A stretch of DNA of 37,998 nucleotides, from NCBI GenBank assembly GCA_031269415.1, contig JAISZF010000050.1, forward strand, positions 1 through 37,998. Direction: 5' to 3'. The notes under the pieces were generated by a model that saw only the letters and a program-made list of their open reading frames with translations, did no database searches and had not been told where the DNA came from. The translations under genes and the position numbers were made by a program. Within the stretch, counting starts at the first letter, position 1, and each line of letters opens with the position of its first letter. Positions 32,806 through 37,998 of the stretch are shown here, one piece after another. The stretch comes from Clostridiales bacterium (GTDB lineage: Bacteria; Bacillota; Clostridia; Lachnospirales; WQUN01).

Positions 32806-32878
32806 GCATCTGTAGCTCAGTGGATAGAGCGACCGCCTCCTAAGCGGTAGGCCGTGGGTTCGATCCCCGCCAGGTGCA
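32806..32878 (+). tRNA. tRNA-Arg (anticodon CCT)
   Basis: Hand-folded cloverleaf. Acceptor stem GCATCTG/CAGGTGC, D arm GCTC-AGTGGATA-GAGC, anticodon arm ACCGC-CTCCTAA-GCGGT, T arm GTGGG-TTCGATC-CCCGC, discriminator A. CCA is not encoded. Confidence 0.93.
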
Positions 32879-32881
32879 TGT

Positions 32882-32922
32882 AAAGCCCTTGAAATCAGTT
32901 GATTTCAAGGCTTTATTTTTTT
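32882..32922 (+). terminator. intrinsic terminator after tRNA-Arg
   Basis: AAAGCCCTTGAAATC, loop AGTT, GATTTCAAGGCTTT (one bulge), followed by ATTTTTTT. Confidence 0.7.
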
Positions 32923-32936
32923 ATATTTTTTTAGTC

Positions 32937-32958
32937 TTCCCACATTATTCCCACATTA
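32937..32958. repeat. perfect tandem 11-bp direct repeat TTCCCACATTA x2 at the integrase 3' end
   Basis: Read directly. Copy 1 is 32937-32947 and copy 2 is 32948-32958. The second copy contains the integrase stop codon. Confidence 0.8.
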
Positions 32959-34155
32959 GATTTTAAAGAGGTGGTTAATGCTTTCAGCGGCTTCTGTTTT
33001 AACCTTGGGCATAACATGCACATACACACCTGCCGTGATTGCTATGGTCGAATGTCCTAATAGTTTTGACACGGTTAATAGTTCAATGCCCTGCTCAAAT
33101 AATTGCGTGGCGTAAGTGTGCCTTATATTATGAAACGCTCTTGTCCTTACCCCGGCCCTTTTTAAACAGCGTATCCATGCGTGGTATATATTTTTGCCGT
33201 CCAGGTAATTGCATGTACTGGATGTGAATATTAAACTCGCGCCTGTTAAGGGTATTTTGTTTGCCAGGTATTTTTCTTTTTGCCGCGCCAGATATGCCTT
33301 TAGGGTAGGAATTAACGCGCTGGGCAAAGGGACGTTCCTTATACTGCTTTTAGTCTTTGGCGTTTCCAGTATCAATGCATATTTGTATGAGCCGTCGGCG
33401 TTAATTATTTTTACGCTCTTTAATGCCTTTGCAACGTGTATTTCTTTATTCTCCAAGTCAACATCCCGGAATGACAGTCCCAGCAGTTCCCCTTTTCTAA
33501 GTCCTGTGCCTAAACCAAGTAACAGTATCATGTTGAGACAGCTTCCGGATTCGTTAAAATAGTTACATGACGCGGCTTTTATTTTTTCAATCTCGTCAGG
33601 TGTAAACGGGTCTACCTCTCTGTCTTCTATGTCGCTTATTCTTTCGGACGCTTTTGATCGCCCCGGAATAGCTATCCTGAAACAAGGATTTATTACTATG
33701 TATCCTTCCTTGATGCAGTAGTTGAAAAACATTTTTAACAGCTTATTCAGATTAAAGATTTGACTTGAGGAAGTTCCTGTATCATAGATCCTGTTATAAT
33801 ACTTTTGGAGCGTCATGGATTTAATGGCGTATATTTTCAGGTTGAATAGTTCCGTGTTTATTACATAGTTACGGAAAACGCCCTCGTATCTGTCGAACGT
33901 GGCGTAGGATGCATACTGCTTTACTACCTCAAATAACCAGGTATGCATGAACTCGCCTAAGGTAGTATTTTGAAAGTCAATATTTAACCCCTTATTGAGG
34001 TTATCAATATATTCTTTCTTTTTTTGTTCAGCTTCCCTCATATTCTTACCTAAAAATTCTTTCCGTATGCGCGTCCCATCCGGGCGCGTTCCAACAGTGG
34101 CAGTTACGCGGGCATATTTAATCCCGTTTTTTTCATAGTTAGTCTTAACTGCCAT
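32956..34155 (-). CDS. int: tyrosine-type site-specific integrase
   Basis: 399 aa. The catalytic residues occur in LGTGLRKGEL (R), HNIRHTYATQL (HxxR) and LLGHSTIAITAGVYVHV (H, Y). It is adjacent to the tRNA. Confidence 0.9.
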   Translation of the reverse strand: MAVKTNYEKNGIKYARVTATVGTRPDGTRIRKEFLGKNMREAEQKKKEYIDNLNKGLNIDFQNTTLGEFMHTWLFEVVKQYASYATFDRYEGVFRNYVINTELFNLKIYAIKSMTLQKYYNRIYDTGTSSSQIFNLNKLLKMFFNYCIKEGYIVINPCFRIAIPGRSKASERISDIEDREVDPFTPDEIEKIKAASCNYFNESGSCLNMILLLGLGTGLRKGELLGLSFRDVDLENKEIHVAKALKSVKIINADGSYKYALILETPKTKSSIRNVPLPSALIPTLKAYLARQKEKYLANKIPLTGASLIFTSSTCNYLDGKNIYHAWIRCLKRAGVRTRAFHNIRHTYATQLFEQGIELLTVSKLLGHSTIAITAGVYVHVMPKVKTEAAESINHLFKI

Positions 34156-34504
34156 TAGTGCGTTCCTCCTGTTGCATTTTCAGGTAAACGTCAGCAGCGC
34201 CCTCCAAACGATATTTGTTCTTAGTGTCCAGCTTCTGGATTTTCTCCAGTAAAGGCGCGATATTGTTTTCATTATCATATGCTGGGAATTTAATGTCATC
34301 ATTCATTAGATAATCGTAGGAAACGCCGAAATAGGATGTTATTTTTTTAACTATATCAACGGATATACGTTTGGAAGTGTTGCACCTAAACATATTATGT
34401 AATGCTTCATAGTTGATACCAGATTCATCACAAAGCTGTTTTATAGTTATTCCCTTTTCCCGACATAATGATTTAATTTTTTTATTAGTGTCCAATAAAA
34501 ACAC
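34145..34504 (-). CDS. XRE-family HTH regulator (CI-like repressor), overlaps the integrase start
   Basis: 119 aa. The HTH is IKSLCREKGITIKQLCDESGINYEALHNMF. The start could be GTG 34504 or TTG 34495 (SD GAAAGGTG). It overlaps int by 11 nt. Confidence 0.8.
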   Translation of the reverse strand: MFLLDTNKKIKSLCREKGITIKQLCDESGINYEALHNMFRCNTSKRISVDIVKKITSYFGVSYDYLMNDDIKFPAYDNENNIAPLLEKIQKLDTKNKYRLEGAADVYLKMQQEERTNGS

Positions 34505-34667: not shown

Positions 34668-34874
34668 ATGTTTCACAACATGATGGCGGAAATTGCAAGG
34701 CATGATTTAAAGCTGGTTGACATAGCAAAAGCTCTGGGGATTTCCAGATCTACGCTTTCCTCCAAGATAAGAGGTAAGTCGCTGTTTTGGGCAGATGAGG
34801 TGCAGACTATGCAAAAGCTGTATTTTTCTGATTGCACTTTTGATTATTTATTGCAGGAGGATACCGTTACATGA
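34668..34874 (+). CDS. small Cro/XRE-like HTH protein
   Basis: 68 aa. AEIARHDLKLVDIAKALGISRSTLSSKIRGKSLF is an HTH. It is divergent from the repressor, with SD AAGGAGGGG. Confidence 0.7.
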   Translation: MFHNMMAEIARHDLKLVDIAKALGISRSTLSSKIRGKSLFWADEVQTMQKLYFSDCTFDYLLQEDTVT

Positions 34875-35158
34875 AGCTTTCTTTAATTAATGATGAACCT
34901 ACGGTAGATTTTTATGAAGTTACTCCCGTGCAATGTGGTAAAATAATGAATCCTCCTATATCCGGCGCGACAGTACTGTCGCGCTGTAAACAAGGGATAC
35001 TGCCTTTTAAGTGTTACAGGACAGAAGGCGGGCATTGGAAAATTTTATTACCGAAGAAGCTTTATTCTAGTAACGCCATTGAGCAGACACTAAAAAATGA
35101 AAACGCCAAATTAAAATTGGTAATCGAAGCCGTTAAGGACGCTGTTAATACATTATAG
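34871..35158 (+). CDS. hypothetical DNA-binding protein, possibly excisionase-like (HTH_17-like)
   Basis: 95 aa with an ATGA overlap to the Cro-like gene. The segment CGKIMNPPISGATVLSRCKQGILPFKCYRTEGGHWKI resembles excisionase-family HTH proteins. The assignment is weak. Confidence 0.4.
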   Translation: MKLSLINDEPTVDFYEVTPVQCGKIMNPPISGATVLSRCKQGILPFKCYRTEGGHWKILLPKKLYSSNAIEQTLKNENAKLKLVIEAVKDAVNTL

Positions 35159-35169
35159 AAGGGTTTGCC

Positions 35170-36687
35170 ATGAAGCTCAATCCACTCCAAATTTTTTATT
35201 TAATAAAAGATAATGACGGCGCTTTTATTACAATGAATGCGAGCGCCTATAAACCTTTATTTATAAAGCATACCCGGCAGGATTATTTGAATGAAGGAAT
35301 ACCGGGTATAGAGCCAATGACCGCGCAGGAATTAAATTTTGAACGTGACGAGCAGACAAGGAAGCTGTACAGCACGGATTGTTACGCGGAAGAAAAATTT
35401 GACGGGACAAGGGCTATACTGCATATAGGGAAGCAGCATAGCCGTATATTCAGTCGGAATATAAGTACGAAAAGTAATTGGTATAATGAATTTACTGATA
35501 GCCTGCCGCAATTAAGAGGATTATCCAGTGAGCAGTATGAAGGAACAATTCTTGACGGCGAGTTATTAATCCCCAATAGGCCGTTTAAAGATATATCGGC
35601 CACAATGAATTGCCTGTGGGATGAAGCAATTAACCGTCAGCTTAAATTAGGTTTCGCCGTATTGAATGTATTTGATATTGTTCATTACAGGGGACTCGAC
35701 ATTATCCATAAGCCTTTGGCCGAAAGGAAACGTTTTTTGCGTGAAGTCGTTAAGGCGTTGCATAGTGCTTACTTATCGGAAGTCTTGTATTTTGATGATA
35801 CGATAACCGTAGTTATACCGGAATCCCTTGTACATCAATTAATGACTGAATACTATTATAAGATTTCCGGGGAAGAAAATTTGCTGTATCCTAATTTATC
35901 AAATTTATTAGCCCAGCAGATTTATGGATTCAGCAAGGATATAACCGGAGATTTTAAATTACGTAATGTTGATAAACAAACATACTACGAGTATATTGTT
36001 GCAATGGGCGGTGAGGGGATTATTCTTAAAGATAAATCAGCCCCATACGAACATAAGAGAAGCAAAGCATTTCTAAAAGTAAAGAAGAATTTTACCCGAG
36101 AAGTTATCATTACTGGGTTTAGCGAACCAACAAAAGAGTATAATGGGAAGCTTCCGGAAACATGGAATTATTGGGAAAACTCAAAAACCGGGGAAATAAA
36201 AGTATTTGACTGGAGCAGTTCAGTGGACAACGACTATTACGCGCGAAATGAGAGCCATTTAATACCGGTATCCAAATACTACGCAGAGCATTGGGTTGGC
36301 AATATTCAGTTTGGCGTTGCTATATCCGACGATGAGGTTAAAACGCTGTCCAAGAAAAAGACGTTTTACATTCAGAAGATGCGGTTTGGTCATAAAATAG
36401 TTAATGTAATTGAGATCGGGGAATGCGCAGGTTTTGACGAAGAAACGCGCCACATGTTCAGTAGTCAGTATTTGTCCAAGGATGGATATATTCATTGTAT
36501 TACAGACACTGATTATGAGCGCGCGGAGAGGAATGAATTTCAACCTGTTCAGTGGGAGGGCAAAGTAATCGAAGTACTGGCGAATGATTTGTTTAAAGAT
36601 ACCGGCAAATTGAGGCACCCAAGATTTTTAAGATTGCGTGAAGATAAATCCCCGCTGGAATGTAATTGGAAGAACCATATAGCATAA
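35170..36687 (+). CDS. ATP-dependent DNA ligase (phage type)
   Basis: 505 aa. The nucleotidyltransferase motifs are I KFDGTR (Lys codon 35395-35397), III ILDGELL, IIIa FAVLNVFDI, IV GEGIILKD, V FLKVKK and VI RHPRFLRLREDK. SD GAAGGG precedes the start. Confidence 0.85.
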   Translation: MKLNPLQIFYLIKDNDGAFITMNASAYKPLFIKHTRQDYLNEGIPGIEPMTAQELNFERDEQTRKLYSTDCYAEEKFDGTRAILHIGKQHSRIFSRNISTKSNWYNEFTDSLPQLRGLSSEQYEGTILDGELLIPNRPFKDISATMNCLWDEAINRQLKLGFAVLNVFDIVHYRGLDIIHKPLAERKRFLREVVKALHSAYLSEVLYFDDTITVVIPESLVHQLMTEYYYKISGEENLLYPNLSNLLAQQIYGFSKDITGDFKLRNVDKQTYYEYIVAMGGEGIILKDKSAPYEHKRSKAFLKVKKNFTREVIITGFSEPTKEYNGKLPETWNYWENSKTGEIKVFDWSSSVDNDYYARNESHLIPVSKYYAEHWVGNIQFGVAISDDEVKTLSKKKTFYIQKMRFGHKIVNVIEIGECAGFDEETRHMFSSQYLSKDGYIHCITDTDYERAERNEFQPVQWEGKVIEVLANDLFKDTGKLRHPRFLRLREDKSPLECNWKNHIA

Positions 36688-36718
36688 GTGATAATAGCCA
36701 AATATTAATCCGATACGA

Positions 36719-36756
36719 TAATGGCAGTCATAGATAATTATCTATGGCTGCCATTA
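36719..36756. repeat. 19-bp near-perfect palindrome between the convergent ligase and HNH genes (hairpin without U tract)
   Basis: TAATGGCAGTCATAGATAA / TTATCTATGGCTGCCATTA, with a single G-T position. There are no flanking T or A runs. Confidence 0.6.
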
Positions 36757-36791
36757 CATTACAGTTGGCCGGATTTTAAGGAGGGGAAGGT

Positions 36792-37982
36792 TCAACAATT
36801 GTCATTATTATCAATTGTGACCTGTAATTCTCTAATATGAGTAAACTGTAACTGCTCAATAATAAATTTTAATAAATCAGGCTTATAGCTATCTAGCCAG
36901 TGAGGATCGTTACCTTTATATAATACTATTTCAAATATACCCGTATTGCCTTCAAAGTCGCCTGAACCTGGGTCGCCGGGATGGTCTATATATGCACACG
37001 CCGCGCATTGATAAAACCAGTTAACAATTCGGGCAATCGTCCATTCAGTGGCTTCCGAATAAGGCGGGTTAAATAACTGCAATTTGTTTGGCGCGGACAA
37101 CAGGCTTGTAGAATTCTTTTTAAAATTAATAATCCGCGTGCCCTTTAGATTATGGCAATACTCACATAGGCATTGCAAATTATCTTCATCGTCATTGCCG
37201 CCGCGTGACACGGGGATAATATGATCAATCTCAATGTACCGTATTTCCCGCTCTTCAAATAACCTGGAATAGCAAGCGTGGCACCTGTTTTCATTTTTTT
37301 TGCGGATTTCCTGTTTCCGTTCGTGTGTTAAAGGTTCCAAAGTTACGGCGGATTCCCCATAAGCGTCGTTATATACCGGCGGGGAATAATAAAGTCGGTT
37401 GGCGTTGTCATACGCTGTCCTGAATGTGTTAAAATCTTTATATAACAGTTTCCAGTGCAGTTGGCTATCATTGAATAGTTTTTCAAGCCGGCTGTGAATC
37501 TCCGGTCCGGGCAAGACAGTAATCTCCTTCACTACTTGGTCCATATCGTATTTTTTGCGGTCACTGTAATCAAAAAATACGGGCTTGGTATCATTCTGCG
37601 CTACATGGCGAATTAGTTTCTGTACGTTTGTTATTAGCTCATCATCAAAATTGTCAATAGGGTCGTCGAAAAAATCCCCGACTAGCTTTGTCGCTTTGTA
37701 ATACAAGGCTGATTCGTTAACCGTCTCACTGCCGTACCGCTTTTTGTTCCATAAATATTCAGGCATTTTTTCCAGCATGTTTTCGTATTTTGCGCGGTTG
37801 AATTCATATACGAGGATTGTCTCATTTTCAATTGTACTGGAATCGTTCTCGCTGTCTACATTTACGTATGAACACTTATACCAGCCAACAGGCAGATAGG
37901 TTATATACTTCATTTGTTCGTAACTTTCGTATTTTATATCCCGGCTTAGATTCTTTACTAATTGTATGGAAATCAAATCCAT
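36792..37982 (-). CDS. large HNH-nuclease-domain protein with unassigned N- and C-terminal regions (possibly 5'-truncated by the window)
   Basis: 396 aa from ATG 37982. The HNH/zinc-ribbon core is CHACYS...EIDHIIPVSRGGNDDEDNLQCLCEYCHNLKG (about nt 37143-37283). No SD is present, and there is no in-frame stop in the 16 nt up to the window edge. Confidence 0.8.
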   Translation of the reverse strand: MDLISIQLVKNLSRDIKYESYEQMKYITYLPVGWYKCSYVNVDSENDSSTIENETILVYEFNRAKYENMLEKMPEYLWNKKRYGSETVNESALYYKATKLVGDFFDDPIDNFDDELITNVQKLIRHVAQNDTKPVFFDYSDRKKYDMDQVVKEITVLPGPEIHSRLEKLFNDSQLHWKLLYKDFNTFRTAYDNANRLYYSPPVYNDAYGESAVTLEPLTHERKQEIRKKNENRCHACYSRLFEEREIRYIEIDHIIPVSRGGNDDEDNLQCLCEYCHNLKGTRIINFKKNSTSLLSAPNKLQLFNPPYSEATEWTIARIVNWFYQCAACAYIDHPGDPGSGDFEGNTGIFEIVLYKGNDPHWLDSYKPDLLKFIIEQLQFTHIRELQVTIDNNDNC

Positions 37983-37998
37983 TGGGTTGTATTTTTGT

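Follow-up and report, generated by a model that had tools for sequence, protein, structure and literature searches.

A core phage DNA ligase beside a truncated helicase-HNH nuclease gene, a probable stand-alone defense gene, in a Clostridiales prophage

Introduction

In SauUSI, an ATP-dependent type IV restriction enzyme of Staphylococcus aureus (PDB 7clg), a ResIII-type motor of helicase superfamily 2 (SF2) shares a single polypeptide with an N-terminal PLD nuclease and a C-terminal DUF3427 domain that reads modified bases. Hna is a single-protein defense that combines an SF2 helicase with a PD-(D/E)XK nuclease (PMC13381803). Related motors are found in HsdR of type I restriction systems and in PbeA and TIGR04095 (dnd/Pbe-linked restriction helicases), all of them ATP-driven translocases on double-stranded DNA that are coupled to nucleases. 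Phages in turn encode ATP-dependent DNA ligases, such as the members of PHROG 114, the ligase of Bacillus phage BCD7 and the PhiKMV ligase, which repairs nuclease damage (bioRxiv 10.64898/2026.09.21.753257). Here we analyzed a locus of a Clostridiales bacterium at which an ATP-dependent ligase gene converges with the gene of a helicase-HNH nuclease. Our window is a whole contig (JAISZF010000050.1, assembly GCA_031269415.1; 37,998 nt), and the open reading frame (ORF) of the nuclease meets its end.

A first-pass annotation of the window, made from its letters, had placed a complete ATP-dependent DNA ligase with motifs I-VI directly after the lysogeny module of a tRNA-Arg island. It had described, on the opposite strand, an HNH gene of at least 396 amino acids (aa) with a CxxC...DH...N...CxxCH core, and between the two genes about 100 nt containing a 19-bp palindrome. 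These observations are borne out below. Two interpretations had been offered, a self-protecting "nick-and-seal" module of nuclease and ligase or, alternatively, an independent phage ligase beside a host-protecting prophage nuclease, and our evidence essentially favors the latter, with the protective role put forward as a prediction. We consider, with a probability of about 0.7, that two unrelated genes have come to lie side by side through insertion, a core phage ligase and a truncated helicase-HNH gene that is probably a stand-alone, prophage-borne defense gene.

Results

The HNH ORF extends from its first ATG over 396 aa (36792-37982, minus strand), and its frame runs on without a stop to the final base of the window. 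Only 16 nt separate the ATG at 37982 from the contig end; they contain no Shine-Dalgarno sequence, and the five codons that precede the ATG read QKYNP, followed by MDLISIQLVK. An initial protein search returned three full-length relatives, the nearest of them 37% identical. Two of the three start with SF2 helicase C-terminal motifs (TQMIGRALRGEK), continue with the linker Q-x-R-N-P-x-E-L-V-S-I-Q-L-V-K and then enter the HNH part. The window's frame joins its homologs exactly at this linker, and its first codons (QKYNP-MDLISIQLVK) align to the interior of the fused proteins. Along 98% of its length, the fragment can be aligned with more than 100 members of the family (27-37% identity, E values from 1e-68 to 1e-210). 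Because the frame reaches the contig end uninterrupted, with first residues that align inside fused homologs, we regard the ORF as the 3' half (36792-37998, minus strand; ~401 codons and a stop) of an SF2 helicase-HNH nuclease gene. Judged from frame and alignment, it is the C-terminal ~47% of one protein of ~840-860 aa that is cut by the contig end, and the DEAD/ResIII and Helicase_C half would lie beyond that end. The suggestion that an HNH operon may run past the window thus holds with respect to the continuation, but it is the gene itself that continues. An exact look-up of the ligase protein gave no further contig, and the HNH protein is known only from this contig in the collections searched.

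We characterized the family to which the fragment belongs. A profile search found 398 relatives at E <= 1e-10; domain and size data were taken from the 120 relatives listed. Most of these are 836-865 aa long and contain DEAD/ResIII, Helicase_C and HNH domains, in the order SF2 DEAD/ResIII helicase, middle domain of ~200 aa, HNH, and C-terminal domain of ~90 aa. The precomputed Pfam domains of full-length homologs comprise only DEAD/ResIII/SWI2_SNF2, Helicase_C and HNH, plus a faint AAA_34, and the family is annotated at source only as "DEAD/DEAH box helicase family protein." In 13 loci from GTDB species representatives, the helicase half is found immediately upstream wherever upstream DNA exists, and in nearly all loci helicase and HNH share one frame, with single ORFs of 791-863 aa. 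In Ectobacillus funiculus, one locus (L001, 8685-11215) contains helicase and HNH as separate, out-of-frame ORFs 3 nt apart, whereas the type-strain assembly (L009, 8630-11161) has one fused ORF of 843 aa; the difference could reflect a frameshift, an error in sequencing or true variation between strains.

In sequence, the motor half comes nearest to SF2 motors of the restriction type. In PADLOC it matches PbeA (2e-26) and models of type IV restriction enzymes, and in NCBIfam EcoAI-type HsdR, RadD, Hef and the dnd-linked restriction helicase, with RadD and Hef matched in part. Its best PDB sequence match is SauUSI (7clg, 1.2e-13). We modeled a full-length member with AlphaFold2 (AF2; predicted local distance difference test, pLDDT, 81.8), and a Foldseek search placed its motor nearest to RadD, the best match, and to SauUSI, XPB and EcoR124I HsdR; the fold matches stop at the motor and do not cover the middle domain. 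RadD, SauUSI, XPB and EcoR124I HsdR are translocases on double-stranded DNA and not RNA DEAD-box proteins.

SauUSI, the best PDB match in sequence and among the top fold matches, is one of the closest described systems, and like the family it unites an SF2 ResIII-type motor, a nuclease and extra domains in one polypeptide. The arrangement differs, however, with the PLD nuclease preceding the motor in SauUSI and the HNH nuclease following it here. PLDc and DUF3427 were not detected in the fragment and are not listed for full-length homologs; the helicase core alone is common to both. Hna follows the same logic and order: it is a stand-alone protein in which the SF2 helicase comes first and the nuclease last. 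We rejected an assignment to Hna, since its nuclease is of the PD-(D/E)XK type (PMC13381803) and that of the family is HNH; a sequence relationship was not detected, and the single-stranded DNA exonuclease/abortive-infection mechanism of Hna cannot be assumed for the family. HsdR, PbeA and TIGR04095, which have a related motor, differ in carrying an N-terminal PD-(D/E)XK nuclease in place of a C-terminal HNH and in their partner genes, HsdM/S, Dnd or Pbe, none of which accompanies the gene here. The HNH core is most similar to EcoKMcrA (6ghc) and Gme HNH (4h9d), over ~60 aa only. Weak PADLOC matches of the window protein to REase_II, mREase_IV, ZorE and DpdF, and of an Ectobacillus homolog to PtuB, involve the HNH core. 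The N-terminal 5-methylcytosine reader of McrA, PtuA and ZorABCD are absent from the family and its neighborhood (PADLOC; 15 loci). Septu (PtuAB) and Zorya II (ZorABE) were therefore discarded as assignments, the PADLOC matches being confined to the HNH core at 13-28 bits with no partner genes in the 15 loci.

The fragment was modeled by AF2 from 119 sequences with a pLDDT of 89.6. Residues ~1-215 (37338-37982, minus strand) form the helicase-associated middle domain, a beta-hairpin followed by helices with pLDDT values mostly above 90, and residues ~305-396 (36795-37070, minus strand) a confidently modeled C-terminal alpha/beta domain at the site whose content varies among family members. Foldseek matched the HNH core alone, with EcoKMcrA and Gme HNH as the best fold and sequence matches. 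For the flanks (the first ~215 and last ~90 residues), we found no significant fold match in PDB or BFVD and no family match in Pfam, NCBIfam, PHROG or PADLOC, which returned the HNH core only; the first-pass reader had likewise recognized nothing in them. A similarity of the C-terminal domain to the MamM CTD (Foldseek E ~0.5) is not significant and was not used. Both domains are thus modeled with confidence by AF2 and lack structural relatives in either PDB or BFVD.

An exhaustive HMMER search with the middle domain alone, covering 1.84 billion proteins, yielded 154 cluster representatives (50%-identity clusters), in which the domain lies almost always at residues ~450-660, directly after the helicase. 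Longer relatives carry additions, either C-terminal Sel1, HEAT, GyrA_C beta-pinwheel or TPR repeats (the last in P0258) or an N-terminal Ser/Thr kinase. From the position of the middle domain and the make-up of these longer proteins, it follows that the middle domain travels with the motor, and that the C terminus is a variable module. Swapped C-terminal modules and added kinases are common in immune sensors. Five of the proteins (P0281, P0313, P0337, P0347 and P0258) retain the helicase-middle-HNH core and add modules to it, and two proteins of ~690 aa (P0312 and P0331) consist of helicase and middle domain with no Pfam match to HNH.

The family occurs in Bacillota, Cyanobacteria, Deinococcota, Planctomycetota, Desulfobacterota, Spirochaetota, Synergistota and Chloroflexota, and two Deinococcus replicons carry it. 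Comparison between phyla gives ~67% identity for the helicase half and only ~33% for the HNH half. Full-length homologs were found in cellular, non-phage contexts; none was present in 50,697 isolated phage genomes (INPHARED) or in IMG/VR. An all-versus-all BLAST comparison of neighboring ORFs in 15 loci revealed no conserved partner gene; additional neighbor clusters turned out to be antisense ORFs inside the gene itself or the synteny of two closely related Nostoc genomes, and were dismissed. Because no neighboring gene is conserved across the 15 loci, we conclude that the helicase-HNH protein acts alone.

Eight genomic contexts were inspected, of which four are defense islands, three are not defense-like and one is the prophage in the window. 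The defense contexts include GmrSD together with a PDDEXK_4 protein that matches the PADLOC candidate PDC-S26, and a KAP NTPase with a superfamily 1 helicase. In Acetobacterium fimetarium (L103, 12635-15760), the gene adjoins a SauUSI-like PLD-helicase-DUF3427 enzyme, with NERD and a type I methyltransferase/S gene; in another locus (L163, 4117-7615 and 12390-14503), it lies between two McrBC systems, one of which has an EVE-McrB, with a UvrD-PDDEXK protein. The latter two loci are dense clusters of modification-dependent restriction genes.

The HNH core of the window protein (37128-37310, minus strand) is a beta-beta-alpha-Me nuclease domain with two CxxC zinc pairs. Pfam HNH matches residues 234-283 (4.4e-12, 46.4 bits against a cut-off of 21.4 bits), and Cys-234, Cys-237, Asp-253, His-254, Asn-268, Cys-273, Cys-276 and His-277 are all present. 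The window reads CEYCHNLKG at the His-277 codon (37152-37154), where 117 of 119 members of the family alignment have an asparagine (CxxCN); the canonical H-N-H form is found only in the window's copy among the 119.

We next consider the second gene of the convergent pair. The ATP-dependent DNA ligase (35170-36687, plus strand, 505 aa) matches Pfam DNA_ligase_A_M (1.4e-24, 87 bits; cut-off 26.2 bits), phrog_114 "ATP-dependent DNA ligase" (6e-43) and NCBIfam ligase models. Motif conservation was read from a family alignment of 27 sequences. In motif I (EEKFDGTR), Lys-76, which is the adenylated lysine of KxDG, Asp-78 and Gly-79 are invariant, as are motifs III (DGE, Asp-129 to Glu-131), IIIa (FDI, Phe-168 to Ile-170), IV (GGEG, Gly-280 to Gly-283) and V (Lys-303/Lys-305). 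The C-terminal motif VI (RHPRFLRLREDK) is mostly invariant and otherwise near-invariant, with Arg-482 to Pro-484, Arg-485, Asp-492 and Lys-493 invariant. The OB-fold scores 20.9 bits with Pfam DNA_ligase_A_C, below the cut-off of 27.5 bits. Among PDB sequences, archaeal and Lig1/Lig3 ligases were matched in their adenylation domains, and annotated ligases of Bacillus and Brevibacillus phages are 26-29% identical. From these matches and motifs, the enzyme is predicted to be catalytically complete. It has the catalytic motifs of the adenylation domain in common with other phage ATP-dependent ligases, but is set apart from them by two family-specific insertions and by a fixed site directly upstream of the large terminase (TerL).

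This site became apparent when we compared 51 ligase loci from related phages and prophages (including L004-L008, L105-L144 and L150). Forty-six of them were contributed by IMG/VR, where an alignment-based scan recovered full-length ligase homologs; a single-sequence scan of the same collection had found nothing. In every one of the 51 loci, a ligase homolog immediately precedes TerL, usually with the portal gene next. The closest ligase homologs (63-64% identity) belong to prophages with the order int - cI - cro - small ORF - ligase - TerL - portal - capsid - sheath. In these, 77-180 nt separate ligase from TerL, and the HNH gene is absent. The 46 IMG/VR loci contain ligases of 36-45% identity followed by TerL proteins that are 47-72% identical to that of L004. 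The ligase thus belongs to the core genes of a phage and prophage family with contractile tails. Within the temperate branch, of which the window is part, it follows int - cI - cro - orf95 with no replication module between cro and ligase, and it may simply be the last early or first late gene. Its site is roughly that at which one would expect a small-terminase gene.

The two genes do not belong together elsewhere. None of the 51 ligase loci contains a match to the HNH fragment or to the helicase, and none of 19 helicase-HNH loci contains a ligase, TerL or portal gene (tblastn); the window is the only place seen where ligase and helicase-HNH genes adjoin. Because the homologs do not co-occur, a two-gene nuclease/ligase system is not supported.

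The spacer between the two stop codons is 104 nt long (36688-36791) and contains a palindrome of 19 + 19 nt (36719-36756; 95% complementary), found in a repeat search. Its predicted RNA fold (-32.8 kcal/mol, z = -4.2) was not equaled by any of 200 shuffled sequences. A terminator scan did not call the palindrome, which has no T-run, and the ligase-TerL spacers of two related prophages (L004 and L007) have no equivalent hairpin. The palindrome is probably a bidirectional transcription stop or an insulator at an insertion junction.

On its left side, the ligase is preceded by a lysogeny module. A tRNA-Arg with anticodon CCT (32806-32878, plus strand; ARAGORN) marks the left border of the island as its integration target, and a terminator-like hairpin follows 3' of it (32887-32910). 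Just downstream of the tRNA, G+C drops from ~0.50-0.55 in the host flank to 0.37-0.40 in the island. The first island gene encodes a tyrosine integrase (32956-34155, minus strand; Pfam Phage_integrase 1.6e-25, Phage_int_SAM_3) that is 50-52% identical to those of the related prophages L004 and L007. It is followed by a cI-like helix-turn-helix repressor (34145-34504, minus strand; Pfam HTH_26 and HTH_3, and PHROG transcriptional regulator/repressor families), which has a syntenic homolog in L004-L008. The rightward operon begins with a small cro-like helix-turn-helix protein (34668-34874, plus strand; weak HTH and PHROG repressor matches), 40-46% identical to the syntenic ORF of the same five relatives, and continues with a 95-aa ORF (34871-35158, plus strand) that has no match in Pfam or PHROG and is 44-48% identical to its syntenic counterpart in them. 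Given the gene order tRNA-Arg, integrase, cI, cro, orf95 and the drop in G+C, the region is an integrated mobile element. A nucleotide search of the island against INPHARED phages gave no match.

Discussion

Our data point to two unrelated genes. The simplest history is that the helicase-HNH gene entered this prophage by insertion, in reverse orientation, between ligase and terminase, and the terminase side of the junction would lie beyond the contig. The hairpin would then act as a transcription stop between the now-convergent units and insulate the inserted gene, which fits with its lack of a counterpart in the ligase-TerL junctions of L004 and L007. The helicase-HNH gene looks like an accessory ("moron") gene, because it is located on the opposite strand between the ligase and the expected place of the terminase, would be insulated by a hairpin and belongs to a solitary, patchily distributed family found in defense islands.

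The most likely mode of action can be outlined. Expressed from the prophage, its product would load onto incoming foreign double-stranded DNA and track along it with ATP, and the motor would thereby deliver the HNH active site, which would cut this DNA. The middle and the variable C-terminal domains may couple motor and nuclease or discriminate between self and non-self targets, and the net effect would be protection of the lysogen against other phages or mobile DNA. The logic is that of SauUSI, HsdR and Hna. We give the defensive part of the mechanism about an even chance. A more specific proposal, which we put forward tentatively and at somewhat less than even odds, is that the SF2-motor-HNH proteins of ~850 aa constitute an undescribed single-gene, ATP-dependent nuclease directed against phages or mobile genetic elements, equipped with two domains of new fold (a helicase-coupled middle domain and a swappable C-terminal specificity module) and captured by a temperate phage as superinfection-exclusion cargo at the ligase|terminase junction. 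We found no description of a helicase-HNH defense protein in open-access papers or bioRxiv, and a further candidate, Hhe, has no model of that name among the PADLOC matches listed.

Several points weigh against the reading of an inserted defense gene. The helicase half is located outside the window, so that its fusion to the HNH part rests on the open frame and five aligned codons, and a split two-gene layout as in the Ectobacillus locus L001 is possible. In the same manner, the terminase beyond the gene is not visible, and a position between ligase and TerL is extrapolated from the relatives. The defense function of the family is a prediction, and no model in PADLOC-DB v2 covers the full protein beyond its generic domains, so nothing flags defense independently. 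Three of the eight contexts are not defense-like, namely Deinococcus chromosome II, a cobalamin operon (L161) and L162. In the cobalamin-biosynthesis cluster (L161, 7448-10948), a full-length gene separates cobS from a short cobU ORF, other mobile-element genes are absent from its vicinity, and this copy looks like a solitary insertion. Finally, the best fold match of the modeled motor, RadD, is a repair helicase, which makes a role in repair or recombination possible.

This last point leads to the main rival reading, according to which the family would be a housekeeping or accessory repair-recombination enzyme, such as one that processes stalled forks or branched DNA in the manner of RadD or Hef. 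The fold match to RadD, the partial NCBIfam matches to RadD and Hef, and those copies that reside among metabolic genes with no defense neighbors are consistent with it. The family is, however, very rare (1.84 billion proteins yielded 154 clusters at 50% identity), and its patchy distribution suggests horizontal transfer. Four of eight contexts are restriction or defense islands, and the copy in the window is prophage-borne. The C-terminal modules are swappable, and decayed or split copies occur: one locus has only 537 aa from stop to stop (L010), another is broken (L020) and a third is split (L001). Since patchiness, island location, exchangeable modules and decay are typical of defense genes and not of core repair genes, we consider a repair enzyme unlikely.

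The decayed copies raise a second alternative, in which the window fragment would be a dead remnant of a gene that is truncated or decayed in the real genome, only the 3' half being visible. We regard this as clearly less probable still: the 401 visible codons are uninterrupted, conserved and catalytic residues are intact, and the truncation coincides exactly with the contig end.

The proposal that the HNH protein nicks or cuts DNA and the ligase reseals self DNA, or that both otherwise form one defense or counter-defense system, draws on the adjacency of the two convergent genes, their common hairpin spacer and their location in one mobile island. Phage ligases can moreover repair nuclease damage, as is the case for PhiKMV (bioRxiv 10.64898/2026.09.21.753257). 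Neither gene, however, is seen with the other among the 51 ligase and 19 helicase-HNH loci. The constant neighbor of the ligase is the terminase, and the constant partner of the HNH nuclease is the upstream SF2 helicase domain to which it is normally fused. Convergent genes, furthermore, are not co-transcribed. A nuclease-plus-ligase defense would have been a new type of system; the evidence removes it, and we now deem it highly improbable. Equally remote is a packaging accessory of the HK97 gp74 type (an HNH protein with terminase, a setting that the first-pass annotation had raised) or a homing endonuclease beside the terminase: the gene does sit exactly where packaging genes start in related phages, whose terminases attract selfish elements, the TerL of L107, L123 and L139 carrying LAGLIDADG intein-like insertions, but it encodes the C-terminal half of a ~850-aa helicase fusion and lies on the other strand from the packaging operon, none of the 51 related phages has it for packaging, and its full-length homologs are cellular, with none in INPHARED or IMG/VR.

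If the preferred reading of a stand-alone defense gene is correct, the helicase-HNH family, rare yet phylogenetically widespread, represents a reasonable candidate for a one-protein helicase-nuclease immune effector beside SauUSI, Hna and Nhi. It would extend this single-polypeptide kind of motor-nuclease with a different nuclease and different accessory domains.

The ligase, as expected from its family membership, would close nicked or broken DNA of the phage itself when this is replicated, matured or repaired. The phage may also benefit against restriction, because phage ligases such as that of PhiKMV can repair nuclease damage. Its placement before TerL in 51 of 51 loci is a clean and striking regularity of phage genome organization, and the linkage could point to a function of ligation in genome maturation or packaging.

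The ligase-TerL junction shows further variation among the related phages. A small zinc-finger ORF is often found between the two genes (L107, 9426-9887; L117, 9401-9907; L139, 9276-9647; L128, 2451-2888); in L107 it matches Pfam DUF3268 (9.5e-52) and weakly resembles the zinc ribbons of Top1 and NAD-dependent ligases. The window, L004 and L007 have no such ORF between ligase and TerL. Some TerL ORFs are enlarged to 838-1283 aa (L107, 9981-12497; L123, 6397-10158; L139, 9740-13591), and in L123 and L139 overlapping ORFs contain a LAGLIDADG-like motif (MILGTxLGDG), which suggests inteins or homing endonucleases inside TerL in these three phages. We had considered the large ligase-TerL gaps of L123, L139 and L107 as cargo hotspots and abandoned the idea, since the gaps are intein-like insertions within TerL and not accessory genes; for this reason, the insertion in the window is exceptional among the loci seen. 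In a distant ligase-TerL phage (L142, 9309-13446), the junction contains four extra ORFs on the same strand, encoding 145 aa, a 75-aa CxxC protein, 308 aa with a KxxG-like motif (EKIHGSN) and 506 aa. The 308-aa ORF is possibly an RNA ligase, and this junction would be a second example of cargo between ligase and TerL.

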